Shown one piece after another: positions 58,401-63,999 of a stretch of 64,000 nucleotides of DNA (the first letter of the stretch is position 1; each line of letters begins with the position of its first letter). Origin of the DNA: Phycisphaerae bacterium (GTDB lineage Bacteria; Planctomycetota; Phycisphaerae; UBA1845); NCBI GenBank assembly GCA_963666835.2, contig CAXXGO010000001.1, positions 96,001 through 160,000 of the forward strand. The letters are read 5' to 3'. The notes under the pieces are model-generated. The model had not been told where the DNA came from and ran no database searches. It saw only the letters and a program-made list of their open reading frames with translations. The translations under genes were made by a program, and so were the position numbers.

Positions 58401-59166
58401 CCATGCGCCGGGCGATCTTCATGCGATGGCCAACCTTGCTCTGCTGCTGCGTTCGGCCGCGGGGATCGAGGCCGAGTTGGTTTTGGCTTATCAGGCCGGC
58501 AACGCGGCCGGAGTTGAAGTCTGCGGGGCGGATCCGGCGTTTATGCCGGGAAGAAAGCCGGTCACGGGCATTCCGGGGACTCGCAACCGGAGTGAGCTGC
58601 TGGCCGCCTTCTCCAGCGGGGCTATCAAGGCCGCTCTCGTTATCGGCGAAGATCCGATCCGCCACGATCGGACGGCGGCGTTGTTCAACTCCGTGGAGTT
58701 TCTTGCCGCGTGTGATTGGGCGGAGACGGAGACCACGCTGTTCGCGAATGTGGCGATTCCTTTGACGACGTATTTGGAGAGCGAGGGGACGCGCGTCAGC
58801 TTCCAGGGTGAGGTGATCGAGTTCAACGCGGCCGTTGGGGCGCCCAACGGGATCAAGACTTGGCACGTGCTTAAGAACCTCGCCGACCATCTTGGGGTAA
58901 AGGTCCCCGGAGTGTTCTCATCGATTTCCGCGAACCTTGCCAAGACCGTGAGGGCGAACCTGGCCGACCGCCTGCCGTTCTATTGGAATACCGGGCAGGC
59001 CCGGGCGTGGGACGGCAAGGGCGAGCTTACGGTGGCGGACGTTGCGACCGTTTCGTTCCCCGGGGCACCGGCCCTTACTCCGTGTGCCCAGCACAAGAAC
59101 GAGGTCCAGGAGATCGGTTTGAAGCACTACCGCGTGGGCTCAAAGGGAGTGCCGGCGGCGGGGTAA
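55450..59166 (+). CDS. Large subunit: [2Fe-2S] + GltD/NfnB-like FAD/NADPH domain + [4Fe-4S] + cofactor-less molybdopterin-oxidoreductase-like domain (StnC-like)
   Basis: PTLC..CFVCVV..PSC; CGRIC; GAGPAG; GGGNTAMDAAR; YRR; KCVLCARC, CIACGNC; CALCSVGC..LC. No Cys/Sec in the segment after NNI where FdhA carries its Mo ligand. Confidence 0.88.
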   Translation: MNTVAIEVNGKSVKARPGQTILEVVEEQKLDDIPTLCHSPELKPYGSCFVCVVEVEGRPTLVPSCATKIAEGMKIKTNTPRVRESRKTAFEFLLSNHYADCVSPCNQGCPAGVDAQGYIALAAMGEHRKAVDLVRRANPLPAVCGRICVRKCEVVCRRQDVEEPVAINHIKRFITDMPDAYTGTPEREEPKGKTVGIVGAGPAGLTAGWFLGLKGYDAVVYENMPAAGGMLRYGIPEYRLPKADLDREIEYITRAGVEIKCGTNIAKEATVDELMKRHAAVFLSPGAWGGKAMRVEGEFDTEGVVSGVEYLIEKAQKPEPVSGTVVVVGGGNTAMDAARTSWRLGAYKVIIVYRRTKAEMPADELEIEDCLKEGIEIMELVAPVGVVRDGKKLKALRCIRMQLGEPDSSGRRRPVPKEGSEFDLPCDLAISAIGQTPLVEGMLEGMKSPPEVSRWSTLDVDTETMKTKVEGLFAGGDAADDGPTVVIDAIRDGQRAAKAIHAYLSGEEPPKKPFVVNKEFWAKPGKQELGEIKQSPRRHMHEIPVEERAGSFREVATGFEHEDTMHEAERCLSCGCVAYDWCKLRRYAEQYDVDMEKYKGYVRKHKVDDRHPYLVYDPNKCVLCARCIRTCERVLPVGALGLVNRGFQAEARPAMEDALIDTSCIACGNCVDACPTGALTVKFPFPGRACLAFEETATRCALCSVGCEIKVKNFGEDRYFIEPSGKPGAYLCFQGRFVNDLFINRKRLLKPMAREGLTHAETTYRDAYEKAVEGLKNAAAEYGPAAVAVLVSPELSNEEMYLASRIAREGLGTNNIASLSLMASGMPSGAMDQSLGFTASTAGVEALRDCDLIFCNNTGTQADQLVLSVEIQEAAKAGAKLVLSKSSEDPLDVMADLKLDPIRGRGTALINGIIQLLIEEGFLDRGRIETIPGGEVFLEDTHDYSLAVTAAQSGVIEDRIRQAAELIKAAKKVVFVHSPDRPRDHAPGDLHAMANLALLLRSAAGIEAELVLAYQAGNAAGVEVCGADPAFMPGRKPVTGIPGTRNRSELLAAFSSGAIKAALVIGEDPIRHDRTAALFNSVEFLAACDWAETETTLFANVAIPLTTYLESEGTRVSFQGEVIEFNAAVGAPNGIKTWHVLKNLADHLGVKVPGVFSSISANLAKTVRANLADRLPFYWNTGQARAWDGKGELTVADVATVSFPGAPALTPCAQHKNEVQEIGLKHYRVGSKGVPAAG

Positions 59167-59497
59167 CGGTTCAGAACGATCGGCGGGGCGGGGCCGCGCT
59201 TGCCCTACGGGGGGTGGTATGGATCAACTTGTTGACCCGTGGAGCAAACGCGGTCCGCGGGGGTGAACGCTCCCCGCTTGTTGATCACGGTCACAGCAAA
59301 GACTAACCTTGACGGGGTTGGGGTGTTGTTCAACCCGTTTCGGGGTTGGTCTGAGAAGGGGGTTTGTGACGCAGGGTGGCAGTGAAGCGGCTGCGGCGCG
59401 TCGTTTACCCTGGGCTTTGTTGTGAAACGCCTACCTTCCTGACATATGTCCACCCGGGTACCTTGGTAACGGACTTCGGGACTTGGGAGGACTACGC

Positions 59498-60349
59498 ATG
59501 GGGCTGCGGAACAAGAAGAAGGAGAGGCTTGAGCGTCTTGACTCGAAGACACTGGATGCCAAGTTTTTGCACGAAATCAAGCACGGACTCCATTGTTCGC
59601 CATTCGAGGCCGAGGCGGTTCTCGATGTGGTCAAGGAAGTTTACTTCCCGTACCTCGATGAACACGCCGGCAAGGCCCCACCTGGCAAGATTGGCTTGGT
59701 CGTCGTCGACGCCGACGAGCCTGCCGGGAAACCCGTCTGCGAATGCCAGAAGCAGAACGTGTGCCTGACAATCCACCGAGGTGCAGAGGATGATCGACTT
59801 CTGGAGGAGGAGGGGCCGGTCGGCTTTCGACAAGCCCGCATCCCACCGCTTTGCCAAGAAGCCCTGAGTCAAGGTGGGCTGCTCACGCGCGAAGATCTGG
59901 CCTACCGGATGTTCTTTGTTACGCCACGAACCATTACGCGCGATTTGAACGCTCTCCGGAGTGCGTATCCCGGGGTGCTTATTCCTCTGCGAGGAATCGT
60001 ACACGATCTTGGTCCCGTGTTGACTCATCGCAGCCAAATCGTGCGTTTGGCTCTGGAGGGAAAGACGACCTCACAGATCTGCACCATGCTTCGCCATTCA
60101 CCGGCGGCTGTAGCGAACTACGTCTCGACATTCACCCGTTGTGCGCAGTTGGCAAAGAAAGGTATGCAGGTCGGGCAAATCGCCTTCCTTCTGCGGAGAG
60201 GCAAGCGGTTGGTACAACAGTACCTTGATCTCCTCGACGAATGCGCGGTCGACAAGAACATGGGCTATCACCTGGAAGAACTGATGCGCCTGGGTTGTTG
60301 TGGCGGGGGGAAAAAGGGACACGGTGAAGAGGGAAGATCCGATGGGTAA
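59498..60349 (+). CDS. DUF1670-type protein A
   Basis: GGAGG RBS; EALSQGGLLTREDL, RTITRDL HTH, PLRG..HDLGP.LTH, HSPAAVANY. Confidence 0.8.
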   Translation: MGLRNKKKERLERLDSKTLDAKFLHEIKHGLHCSPFEAEAVLDVVKEVYFPYLDEHAGKAPPGKIGLVVVDADEPAGKPVCECQKQNVCLTIHRGAEDDRLLEEEGPVGFRQARIPPLCQEALSQGGLLTREDLAYRMFFVTPRTITRDLNALRSAYPGVLIPLRGIVHDLGPVLTHRSQIVRLALEGKTTSQICTMLRHSPAAVANYVSTFTRCAQLAKKGMQVGQIAFLLRRGKRLVQQYLDLLDECAVDKNMGYHLEELMRLGCCGGGKKGHGEEGRSDG

Positions 60350-61115
60350 GCCGCGAGACACCAACAGCAGAAGATACAGTCCCCTGCAGGCGAAAACGCT
60401 GAGAAACGTGTTGGCTCACCGCATCGAAACGGAGTTTCCACGCATAGGCGGCCCACGGATTCGCAACCTGTGCGCAGAGATGATCCTTGAGGTCATCGGT
60501 GCCCACGTTCTCCCGAAGGAGCATATCCAACATGGTCAGATACTCTGGATGGCGATCAGCAGCGCAGATCCCCCGAGTCAGCGTCGACGGATTGAGGATA
60601 CCGATCTGCTTCCGGTGGTCTTGGACGTGAGTACCTTCGAGGATATCGAGATGCGTTTGCAGAAGAAGGGACGTGGAGAGTTGCTCTTACAAAAGAGCTT
60701 GAGGTTATGCCGGCAGGCGTACGAACAAGGGGGCGTTCTGTCCAACTCTGATCTCTCGGAGTTGTTAGCAGTCAATGCGTCGGACGTCTCGCGATTGTTG
60801 GCGGCGTACGAACGCGAGACCGGTCAGATCGTCCCACGTCGCGCTACTGTCCACGATGTCGGCACAGGGCTTACGCACAAACGGATCATCTGTTTCAAAC
60901 ATTACGCAGAAGGCAAAGCGGCTAACGAAGTGGCTCGGGAAACGTACCACAGCCTTGAGGCTGTGGATCGTTACCTGGGCCAGTACGATCGCGTCCGCCA
61001 CTGCCATCTTCAGGGGCTGACGGCAAAGGAGACAGCCCATGCTTTAGGTTGCAGCATCTTCCTGGTTCAGGAGTACCTGGAGATCGATCATGAGTTGGAG
61101 GGCCAGCATGCTTGA
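60342..61115 (+). CDS. DUF1670-type protein B (paralogue of A)
   Basis: QAYEQGGVLSNSDL, PRR..HDVG.GLTHK, HSLEAVDRY, LVQEY; overlaps the stop of A. Confidence 0.8.
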   Translation: MGKPRDTNSRRYSPLQAKTLRNVLAHRIETEFPRIGGPRIRNLCAEMILEVIGAHVLPKEHIQHGQILWMAISSADPPSQRRRIEDTDLLPVVLDVSTFEDIEMRLQKKGRGELLLQKSLRLCRQAYEQGGVLSNSDLSELLAVNASDVSRLLAAYERETGQIVPRRATVHDVGTGLTHKRIICFKHYAEGKAANEVARETYHSLEAVDRYLGQYDRVRHCHLQGLTAKETAHALGCSIFLVQEYLEIDHELEGQHA

Positions 61116-61468
61116 CTCGATGGCACAGCACGTCAGACTTGTGTGTGCTGGTCGAGAGGACAGGGCTCTGCTGAGGAGCACCCCGAGCGCTCGTACCAGT
61201 GCCGGGACAGGCGCGGGAGTCTGCATGCACGGCGGGCTCTCGCTCTCCCTGGCCTGTTCTGGCTCCCAAGCGACAAACCTTGGGGGTCTGGGGGCAAAGC
61301 CCCCGGTGATCGCCACACGGTCGCGGTGGACATATGTCACTATCTTCGGCGTAAGCTGGATCCCGCGGCTCACGCCGTGGGCTAGGCAGAGCTGTCGCCC
61401 TGACGGGCTGGTTCCGCGAGCCACACGCGTGGCACATCTGCGTGCGGCTCGGACGATTACGGCCTTGA

Positions 61469-61502
61469 TGGCAGGTCTCGTGCCTCGACCGTGCCCTACG
61501 AG
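61469..61502 (-). repeat. GTAG-type REP-like element, copy 2
   Basis: 33/34 identical to 19370-19403. Confidence 0.7.
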
Positions 61503-61629: not shown

Positions 61630-63999
61630 CTATGACTGCGAGCCTGCATCCGATTCGTTGTCGAGGCGCTTTTTAACTTTCAACAGGCGCGATGTGTGGC
61701 TTTCATCGGAAGCGGATGCCGGCCCGCGTTCGGATGGGGTGCTTGTAGTCGGGCGATGTGTCTGCGGAATACTGTATCCCGATTGCCGCGCGGGCCGGTT
61801 GGCGCGGCAATCGGGGTTTACTTGTTCGTCGCGGCGTTGCGGCTGGTCCGTTGGCGGCTTGCCGGACTCACGCGTCTGGCTATGCGATTCGCGGAGGGCG
61901 GCGAGCGTTGCCACGCTTTTGGCGGCAACCTCTCTGGCGCCGAGTCCGTCCGTCCATCCGGTGAGTTTCTGGAAAAGCTCGGCGGGTGTGACCGCAAGGC
62001 GACGCACGGCCACATCCAACAAGAACAACCCCAATGCGAACTTAACCAGCAGTTCCCAGACGGAGCGACGAATCTGCACCGGACGGATGCTCGACCGCTC
62101 GAAGACCATGTCCGGGTACTGGGCACTGAGCACCCGACCGCCCGTCTTGCGAGCGAGGCCGGCGAGCGTTGTGTCATCATGCGTCATTGTCGCGTACTCC
62201 TTCGAGAAGCTGACGACAATGCCGGTCCTGAGCGTACCCGAGTGCCGCCGGCGTCCTTCTCCCTGCGAATAGGCCATGTTGACCAGGTACGTCCCCGGGA
62301 GGTCCGCTGAGAAATCCGCCTCCAACCGCCCGGACGCCGTACGCTCGAAGTGGAGCGGTTTCGACGAATAGTCCGGCTGAATCAGGCGGCCGGTCAGCTC
62401 CAGCGACGTTTGCAGTTCCCTCGGCAGGTACTCGGCCGATACAACCACGTGGCCGACCCCGTTTTTGACCGACGATTCGACTTCGAGGTCCGACGCATTC
62501 GACGACCTCCCGGCGTACCGGACGACCTGCGTCCAGAGCTTGCTGAAGCTCGGCCACGCCACCCACTGCGGCGCCCAATGATTCCACAGGCCGCTGGTGA
62601 AGGCCACCGCTCGGCCAAGGCCCTCCTGCCAATAGGCGAGAATCGGATCGGAGCCCTCGTCGGTGGGGCGGAACAACGGAACCGATGCCGCCGGCTTGGC
62701 AGAAGCCACGACGTGGCCGCGCAGCGCCGGAATGTCCGACTGCGAGAACCCCACCATAATCCGCTCGTTGTCGCTTTCATCGAGCCGTGGCGTGAACGGT
62801 CTCTCGTATAGTCCGGACGTACTGGCTAATACCGTCTCGTGAACGAAGATCTGCGGCAGCGGCTGTGCACTTCGGGCGGTGTACATTCTGCCCTGACTCA
62901 GCGTTGCAATCCGGGCAAGAAGTGCCCGATCGGCGTCCGGCCCAACGGCAATCGTCGAAACGGTGATGCCCGCATCACAGCACTTTCCGGCGAGCGCTTC
63001 GAAATCTCCGTGAACGGACTTACCGTCCGTGAGCACGATTACGTGCTTCAGGTTAGCGTCCAGAGGGAGCAGGGCGGCATATGCCTGCTCCAGTGCCGGG
63101 AACATGTTCGTCCCGCCGCCGCCGGCAATCGTGGAGATCATGCGCGCAATCGCAGTTCGATCGGCAGCGGTGCGAATCGGAACCACGCACTCCGGCATGC
63201 TGTCGAACGCGATCACACCAATGCGATCCAGCGGACCAAGCAGTTGAACGGCTCCCATCGCTGCCTGTCGGGCCATTGCCAGCTTCTCTCCGCTCATCGA
63301 TCCGGACCGGTCGATGACAATCACCATGGCCAGACTGAGCAGCTTGAGCTTGTCGCGATCGGTCTCGACCGGCAGGACTTCCTCGAGCGTAGTATGAGCG
63401 TAGCCACCGACGCTAAAGGACTGATCGCCGCCGATGACGACTAATCCACCGCCCTGATCGCGAACGAACGAGGCGATCATCTTCTGGAGGTTCTCCCCCA
63501 GCGCAAAGGCCGACACATTGCAGAGAATCAGCGTCGAGCAGTCCGCCAGAGATGCCGGATCGGCCGGCAGTCTATGGAGCGAGATCTGTTCGACCTCGAT
63601 GCCGCCCTTGCGCAGCGCCTCGGCCAGGACCCGCGCGCCCTCTCGATCGCTTTGAGACGAAGAACCCGCTACGATTAGCACGCGTTCCGCCTGTCCGACG
63701 ATCGTAAACGCGCTGCCCTGGTTGTTGATGGCCATGGTGTCCGCAAGCTTATCGTCCGGGCTGATGACCGCCGTGAATCGATGGACGCCGGAGGTCGGCA
63801 GTTGCACCGGAATGGCATATCGGTTTGCCCCGGCGTCAAGGTGGATTGGCAACGATGACGCTTCTGAAGACTCGTCCAGATCAACGAGTCGGTCGTTATG
63901 GTAGAGGCGCAGGTGAGCGGCCGTCGGGAGCTGCGAGCGTATGAACAGTTGAAGGTCAATGACCTCGTCGCGGTTGGCAGTTGCGGGCGCGGACAGCCG
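61630..63999 (-). CDS. vWA-domain membrane protein with glutamine-amidotransferase-like domains (5'-partial)
   Basis: The frame is open to the window edge; MIDAS DRSGSM, GGGT, VLTDG; GGGLVVIGG..SF..GGY..LEEVLPV; GLGRAVAFTS; C-terminal TM helix. Confidence 0.88.
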   Translation of the reverse strand, partial: RLSAPATANRDEVIDLQLFIRSQLPTAAHLRLYHNDRLVDLDESSEASSLPIHLDAGANRYAIPVQLPTSGVHRFTAVISPDDKLADTMAINNQGSAFTIVGQAERVLIVAGSSSQSDREGARVLAEALRKGGIEVEQISLHRLPADPASLADCSTLILCNVSAFALGENLQKMIASFVRDQGGGLVVIGGDQSFSVGGYAHTTLEEVLPVETDRDKLKLLSLAMVIVIDRSGSMSGEKLAMARQAAMGAVQLLGPLDRIGVIAFDSMPECVVPIRTAADRTAIARMISTIAGGGGTNMFPALEQAYAALLPLDANLKHVIVLTDGKSVHGDFEALAGKCCDAGITVSTIAVGPDADRALLARIATLSQGRMYTARSAQPLPQIFVHETVLASTSGLYERPFTPRLDESDNERIMVGFSQSDIPALRGHVVASAKPAASVPLFRPTDEGSDPILAYWQEGLGRAVAFTSGLWNHWAPQWVAWPSFSKLWTQVVRYAGRSSNASDLEVESSVKNGVGHVVVSAEYLPRELQTSLELTGRLIQPDYSSKPLHFERTASGRLEADFSADLPGTYLVNMAYSQGEGRRRHSGTLRTGIVVSFSKEYATMTHDDTTLAGLARKTGGRVLSAQYPDMVFERSSIRPVQIRRSVWELLVKFALGLFLLDVAVRRLAVTPAELFQKLTGWTDGLGAREVAAKSVATLAALRESHSQTRESGKPPTDQPQRRDEQVNPDCRANRPARQSGYSIPQTHRPTTSTPSERGPASASDESHTSRLLKVKKRLDNESDAGSQS

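Follow-up and report, generated by a model that had tools for sequence, protein, structure and literature searches.

How does a small DNA element move when neither of its two genes encodes a protein that profile searches place in a known transposase family? The enzymes known to move insertion sequences in prokaryotes are of the DDE, DEDD, HUH, serine or tyrosine type. In a 64,000-nucleotide stretch of Phycisphaerae DNA (hereafter the window), a 1.9-kb sequence with two DUF1670 genes occupies positions 59432-61344, in a gap between converging host genes (a Fe-S/flavin oxidoreductase gene ending at 59166 and a vWA protein gene ending at 61630) that is full of dispersed repeats. This sequence is a real mobile element, and its full extent exceeds the first drawing by 13 bp. 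Six full copies are present in the genome (C1:155440, 1319284, 1312202 and 65148; C6:1036425; C7:63406); they are 99.8-100% identical, with 0-4 differences per 1900 bases, and have intact genes and different outer flanks. The first-pass annotation of this DNA had proposed a little-studied mobile class, and had named in advance, among the patterns that would speak against it, a gene pair syntenic and single-copy in all relatives and repeats unconserved around other DUF1670 pairs. We find instead multiple copies, a patchy presence in relatives, ends conserved in several phyla and gene-less derivatives, and the proposal of a mobile class stands. Element depth is ~3.5-6x that of its flanks in contigs of three sequencing runs, two of which represent one sample and one of which may be the source sample, and depth is not copy number. 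At C1:1310303-1321183, two copies in back-to-back orientation are separated by 7 kb; they enclose several membrane-protein-like ORFs and could act as a composite unit.

The element's ends have an asymmetric architecture. Perfect 15-bp inverted repeats lie at 59440-59454 and 61325-61339, and each contains the self-palindromic core noted at first pass, the 10-bp palindrome GACATATGTC (59441-59450 and 61329-61338), the left repeat being a likely, predicted protein-binding site. These repeats had been described as exactly terminal; they are perfect as described and sub-terminal in position, the element continuing for 8 nt on the left (59432-59439, identical in 6/6 copies) and 5 nt on the right (61340-61344), all features being given on the + strand. 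The palindromic cores thus lie 9 nt from the left end and 6 nt from the right end. By itself the inverted repeat is weak evidence, because the window contains 2 perfect 15-mer inverted pairs spaced 0.5-5 kb apart and each of 10 base shuffles contains 0-2 (3 in all); the repeat is beyond chance because 12 of the 13 genomic occurrences of the exact 15-mer end the six full copies. A 7/9 direct repeat around the element had been read as a decayed target duplication. The letters beyond the 15-bp repeats are common to all six copies (one copy has a single change) and each half of the direct repeat straddles an element/target junction, so a 9-bp duplication is ruled out, its halves being the element's own ends plus target and an artefact of the borders as drawn. 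What does recur is one base: C61344, the last base of the element, matches C59431, the last base of the left flank, and this base common to left flank and right junction could be either a 1-bp duplication or a 1-bp crossover core.

The target is a hairpin at the end of a host repeat. On the left, a host REP-like repeat (59285-59431, + strand) lies outside the element, and its last five bases (59427-59431) form the left arm of the target hairpin; the rest of the hairpin lies beyond the right end (61345-61353, + strand), with a 3-nt loop at 61345-61347 and the right arm at 61348-61352. All six copies are inserted immediately 5' of the 3-nt loop in this REP-end hairpin, which ends a 150-200-bp REP-like repeat. 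Among 71 matches to the REP end in the genome, 64 are empty, mostly of the form ACGCC-NNN-GGCGT, and the other 7 are joined to the left end of the element, in six cases as part of a full copy and in one as part of a mini. The element occupies both kinds of REP end, and its left end always faces the REP interior. Y1 (RAYT-like) transposase genes adjoin copies of the target repeat at C1:801499 and C1:288162, and the repeat fits what would be expected of a RAYT-associated REP. Two further REP-like high-copy repeats follow the element, at 61469-61502 and 61359-61420, the second named with a sub-threshold Rfam match to Acido-Lenti-1 (E 0.025).

The same end geometry recurs far beyond this genome. 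DUF1670 is present in 3/60 relatives and 4/400 genomes of the phylum, and a scan of species genomes yielded 62 related loci in Planctomycetota, Acidobacteriota, Chloroflexota, Lentisphaerae and others, picked by two peptide patterns whose conservation in these loci is circular. Both ends were located in 27 loci, one in 20 (a few doubtful) and none in 15. All 27 two-ended loci share a fixed order of 9 nt, a 10-bp palindrome, genes, palindrome and 6 nt, and the palindromes of related loci are of the types GACATATGTC, GACAATTGTC or GCCATATGGC. In 26 of the 27, which are not all independent, four related loci coming from one genome, the left flank finishes on the same base as the right end; this base is C in 22, T in 2 (one in uncertain register), G in 1 and A in 1, and it is ambiguous in the remaining locus, L061. 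Beyond this set, four full loci are C/C and one mini is T/T. Two gene-less derivatives have T on the left and C on the right (C6:2406753 and L241), and with the ambiguity of L061 these show that the one-base junction rule has exceptions. In the genome the left-end motif has 12 matches; it is also present in 4/60 relatives, 2 of these with DUF1670, and a reversed-control version of it has no match in the genome or the 60 relatives. No related loci were found in viral contigs or in plasmids, and in a control search the DUF1670 protein family reaches an archaeon. Five Chloroflexota members (L065, L066, L068, L069 and L071) sit after sequences that resemble integron attC core sites and are candidates for such sites.

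Rebuilding the targets of the 27 two-ended loci reveals a stem opening at the cut, with a 3-5-nt loop, in 19; one further target has a perfect stem by eye, and 7, mostly from distant Chloroflexota and Rhodothermales loci, have no stem at the cut. Hairpin targeting therefore belongs to the subfamily of the present element. Stem sequences differ among targets (for example GCCCC, GACCCC, CCAGCC and AGCTCC arms), consistent with a target chosen by symmetry or shape, and the pairing could also simply reflect that REPs are hairpins.

Derivatives lacking both genes indicate which parts of the element matter for movement. Gene-less forms of 25, 49 and 118-119 bp keep the element's ends in this and three other genomes. 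This genome contains two 118-bp elements, one clear 49-bp element with several looser kin, and two 25-bp minis that consist of the left end, one core and the right end; a strict-geometry census of 49-bp derivatives found 1, the others resting on BLAST and reading by eye. Other genomes with DUF1670 genes likewise contain 118-119-bp elements and minis that share these ends. Because gene-less derivatives carry the same ends, the ends may suffice, with an end-specific activity probably acting in trans. MITE families of 118 and ~49 bp (C3:11933-12050, C6:354969-355086, C6:1314788 and kin) have the element's geometry around a GACAATTGTC core, and no full parent of these families is present in this assembly.

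Rearranged relics suggest a second kind of event. At C5:242190-242229, two right ends surround one core as a right-end/core/right-end palindrome, and the REP between two outer flanks is lost; other relics in the genome include a truncated right end and one in which the interior is inverted against its outer end. In L047, ~50 bp of right end plus flank is repeated in inverted form on the left. The palindromic cores would then also exchange with each other, by enzyme or by slippage, and the minis may be made through such core-by-core exchange. We considered the 25-bp mini as a true empty site for core-to-core insertion and rejected this as the main route, because 1/71 REP ends holds a mini against 6 with full elements, and because the extensions are conserved across phyla and the hairpins vary. 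A search of 36 genomes for abutting right and left ends returned one match, in L222 (about 1490-1540), with a single C; there, a mini and then a left end lie at the 3' terminus of a coding sequence, for which the element provides the stop codon. By eye, this gene looks like one for a tyrosyl-tRNA synthetase. Contigs of 4 sequencing runs, an assembly form that drops rare forms, contained no joined right-end-to-left-end junction, and reading by eye gave no convincing -35/-10 promoter pair at joined ends. Among the sequencing runs listed as containing the element, none is an RNA run.

The two genes are overlapping DUF1670 paralogues, as the first-pass annotation recognized: gene A (59498-60349, + strand) encodes 283 aa and gene B (60342-61115, + strand) encodes 257 aa. 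Their products are 26% identical over 250 aa and score 129 and 169 bits against a cut-off of 25 for DUF1670 (PF07900). At E<=0.001, 1453 of 2745 candidates are relatives of B, and A has 1216 relatives among 50%-cluster representatives. The previously described shared motif is present as written, with a His-to-Tyr spacing of +8, except that the His of its 'HD' varies in distant A proteins. Across 73 aligned A proteins, Arg165 and Tyr208 are the sole invariant residues. Five positions, Arg165, Asp170, His177, His200 and Tyr208 in A and Arg167, Asp172, His179, His203 and Tyr211 in B, have the same commonest residue in both paralogue types, in 69-77 of 83 A-type and 5-7 of 8 B-type clusters, the latter a set that lost some B-type repeats from fused proteins to the A-type bin.

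Several features link A to B. A G6A5 run in the A/B frame overlap (60305-60315, + strand) is a possible slippage site from which an A-B fusion would arise. Defined as at least five A, or G2+A4, within the last 78 nt of gene A, an A-run occurs in 40/41 usable loci (44 rows, 3 dropped where the A hit fell on gene B) against 100/3381 long ORFs of the genome. Frame B lies +1 relative to A in 25 loci and +2 in 16, and transcriptional slippage therefore fits better than a fixed -1 ribosomal shift; slippage on the A-run would yield the fusion. Natural fusions exist, and 8/8 scanned proteins of 523-952 aa contain DUF1670 repeats and HTH matches alone; four proteins of 930-952 aa (P0160, P0192, P0196 and P0238) have up to four DUF1670-like repeats. 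These fusions and the conserved A-run suggest that A and B work together, and no other gene was found travelling with the element.

Fold and profile searches point to DNA-binding domains. A model of B (pLDDT 88) comprises N-terminal helices, one beta-hairpin, a winged HTH and two further HTHs, with two strands of 3 or more residues in total. VIA matched this model to HTH and winged-HTH domains alone (best Z 6.4, rmsd 2.4, 53 aligned); Topo VI-A/Spo11 winged-helix rows, at Z 5.3-5.6, were not above background and were set aside. Residues 1-131 alone reached a best Z of 4.7, and in Foldseek the B model had no hit at E<=0.001 among PDB or viral structures. These B-model searches list no catalytic domain of a recombinase or transposase, and absence from such a list does not exclude one. 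A PDB sequence search with the A profile returned winged-HTH regulators alone (best E 0.004), and the ESM Atlas returned HTH proteins at 0.77-0.81. Pfam searches of A and B gave no rve or DDE family match, an IS630 model match being limited to its N-terminal HTH positions 2-38, and the B model lacks the five-stranded sheet of an RNase H fold. Likewise, DEDD RuvC-like and Transposase_20 domains had no match in A or B at E<=1. For HUH enzymes, we found no conserved H-hydrophobic-H, no Y1_Tnp match in A or B and no central beta-sheet in the B model.

We consider it reasonably probable that A and B are an end-joining recombinase that moves the element and that, as the B model predicts, is built from HTH domains and not from a known transposase fold. 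The route that we infer involves circle formation, A-B cooperation, slippage and strand chemistry. A and B, or a slippage-made A-B fusion, would bind the two palindromic cores and bring the ends together into a circle with the cores 15 nt apart, and insertion would follow on the 5' side of the 3-nt loop, through an exchange staggered by one base. Within this recombinase proposal we lean slightly towards a conserved tyrosine, Tyr208 in A and/or Tyr211 in B, forming a covalent phosphotyrosine with the aid of the conserved Arg, Asp and two His; alternatively, the conserved Asp/His would carry out a metal-dependent transesterification. The 25-bp minis and rearranged relics would come from secondary exchange, or from slippage, between palindromic cores. 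Movement by A and B is favoured by the near-identical copies with intact genes and different outer flanks, the patchy distribution of DUF1670, the fixed 9/6 geometry, a common junction base that includes the non-C cases G/G, T/T, T/T and A/A, the stems of differing sequence at the cut, the gene-less derivatives with the same ends and the left-end motif that is never found as a reversed control. Further support comes from the single-C abutment of right and left ends, the lack of any passenger gene, fused forms made of DUF1670 repeats alone, and the conservation of R, D, H, H and Y in both paralogues. Against this, the L222 abutment could be a 25-bp tandem duplication, the B model matches HTH-type domains alone and the catalytic role is a prediction. 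The T/C derivatives, the 7 targets with no stem, the partial dependence among related loci and a B-type sample of 8 clusters also count against it. Ordinary HTH patterns include a wing Arg-Gly and a recognition-helix Tyr, and several of the conserved residues fit them. By analogy with LuxR-type HTHs, the conserved residues would presumably sit on the phosphate-binding face, a placement that would suit either catalysis or plain binding.

These same HTH matches favour a different role for the two proteins, as DNA-binding adaptors for a host or helper enzyme that cuts and joins, such as a REP-associated Y1 transposase, a topoisomerase, or repair and template switching at the hairpin. Y1 transposase genes adjoin the target repeat, the L054 element lies (by eye) directly behind such a gene, and the fold-back relics at C5:242190-242229 and in L047 resemble template-switch products. 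However, the end geometry is the same in several phyla with different targets and the protein family extends to an archaeon, which would demand a near-universal helper. Asp and His are rarely conserved at the HTH positions of His177/179, His200/203 and Asp170/172, whereas here they are conserved at these usually variable positions. On this evidence we regard a purely adaptor role as unlikely.

Less probable again is the reading of both proteins as tyrosine recombinases that have diverged strongly and that work as the pairs or trios encoded by Tn554 or RIT elements do. The first-pass annotation had favoured a tyrosine-recombinase-like enzyme, of which the invariant Arg165/Tyr208 pair survives, together with an hhalign alignment that puts the conserved HS on the recombinase LGH with a Gly-to-His spacing of 12 in both; the absence of a multi-base duplication and the palindromic cores with relics of core-by-core exchange also agree with it. 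The enzyme identity itself fares poorly. Pfam finds no integrase domain in A or B, with no PF00589 match at E<=1, and hhalign against the 8 tyrosine recombinases of the genome gives probabilities of 2.7% (A) and 0.16% (B). The His...Tyr box falls in the region that aligns to sigma-4/LuxR-like helix-turn-helix domains, and the DUF1670 consensus has [TS]HK where HxxR would be expected. Tyrosine recombinases typically use a 6-8-base overlap, against one base at these junctions. Arg165 and Tyr208 are 43 residues apart, and PMC3414803 gives ~30 residues from Arg to Tyr as typical. The proposed HTH-built enzyme may still use tyrosine chemistry, on a fold other than that of the recombinases.

Downstream of gene B lies a conserved structured non-coding motif (61150-61304, no strand assigned) that includes the G5C-AAA-GC5 hairpin (61290-61304) seen at first pass just inside the right end, and that is missing from some multi-copy members. 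Its folding has a z of -3.6, 20/28 pairs show two-sided change, it is present in 23/62 related loci, and an Rfam search returned nothing at gathering score. A metagenome scan matched at least 119 loci, of which 80 were examined; with 87 of 133 candidate ORFs scanned, the neighbours are rve/IS3-type (25), IS21 IstB (13), DUF1670 (8), IS110 (6), IS256 (3), integrases (2), rolling-circle Rep (1), HTH-only (2), reverse transcriptase (1) and host or unassigned (19). In these loci (L103-L182) the transposase genes next to the motif belong to five or more IS families that are unrelated, and the motif occurs in either orientation. The motif-bearing region also occurs in five genomic copies (C1:1129000, C6:1566939, C6:1729282, C6:2674431 and C7:71487; L002, L003), the L003 copy lying downstream of, and antisense to, an IS110-family transposase gene. 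The motif may be an RNA or single-strand DNA signal, and the region is probably a passenger of many mobile elements and not a guide RNA, because a four-copy element lacks it and unrelated IS families share it. That this region yields a guide RNA choosing the REP target, in the style of the IS1111 seekRNA or bridge RNA, is very improbable: the anatomy is IS1111-like (sub-terminal repeats, asymmetric extensions, REP targets and a downstream non-coding region, as in PMC11187229), and the region is structured, covarying and homologous to one beside an IS110-family gene, but its conserved letters are unchanged when the target changes, four copies in one genome (L028, L029, L031 and L032) do without it, although such an RNA could be supplied in trans, and it accompanies many unrelated IS families.

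Whether DUF1670 pairs constitute a new HTH-only transposase/recombinase class, which would join with a one-base overlap, recognize hairpins by symmetry or shape, need no RNA and move 25-120-bp cargo-free ends in trans, we hold to be an evenly balanced question. Literature searches for DUF1670 and PF07900, with paywalled papers, supplements and ISfinder outside their scope, returned no description, and an unpublished listing is possible. New at the present locus are a six-copy, hairpin-targeting member with exact ends, a varying common base, a nested set of derivatives that lack the genes, and observations that speak against a guide RNA. If the proposal is true, a widespread element (judging by the relatives of B) moves without the known enzyme classes and implies new DNA breaking-joining chemistry, an unassigned Pfam family gains a function, and IS annotation misses a whole family together with its MITEs. 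For experiments the genome supplies exact ends, some 60 unoccupied targets and naturally occurring substrates of 25, 49 and 118 bp. A compact inserter that is accurate to the base and leaves almost no scar would also be attractive as a tool.

Set beside known systems, the element fails the tested defining features of the IS110, DDE and HUH families and the tyrosine-recombinase motif test. DDE insertion sequences (IS3, IS21, IS630 and kin) have terminal repeats and 2-14 bp duplications, whereas the repeats of this element lie inside its ends and no more than one base recurs. In IS3 and IS1, two frames overlap across an A-rich stretch and a fused protein is made; the overlapping frames and A-rich run are shared, a fusion being predicted here, but the DDE/RNase H domain, the terminal repeats and the 3-9 bp duplication are not. 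IS200/IS605 and RAYT systems have sub-terminal palindromes, cut some bases away from them, are tied to hairpin DNA and use catalytic Tyr and His. The present element likewise has sub-terminal palindromes, an offset cut, a hairpin tie and Tyr and His as candidate catalytic residues, but it lacks an HUH motif and central beta-sheet and has the same 10-bp palindrome at both ends. Tn554-type and RIT elements encode two or three tyrosine recombinases with a C-terminal Tyr in adjacent or overlapping paralogous genes and insert site-specifically (PMC3414803). The present element resembles them in its adjacent, overlapping paralogues, site-specific insertion and conserved C-terminal Tyr, and differs in having no detectable recombinase domain or HxxR, a much smaller size and a hairpin target. 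The closest likeness is to the IS1111/IS110 group: IS1111 members have sub-terminal inverted repeats with extensions of 7 and 3 nt (PMC11187229), against 8 and 5 nt here, and the group, including IS621 and ISPpu9/10, is described as showing exact REP insertion, a short core in place of a duplication and small gene-less modules that act in trans (PMC11187229; PMC11208160; PMC12288879; PMC1525189), all of which have counterparts here. Unlike that group, this element has two HTH-type genes and no DEDD RuvC-like or Transposase_20 domain, a single common base that varies with the target, and a non-coding region that is dispensable in cis and not target-matched. The element works most like IS1111, but without its enzyme.
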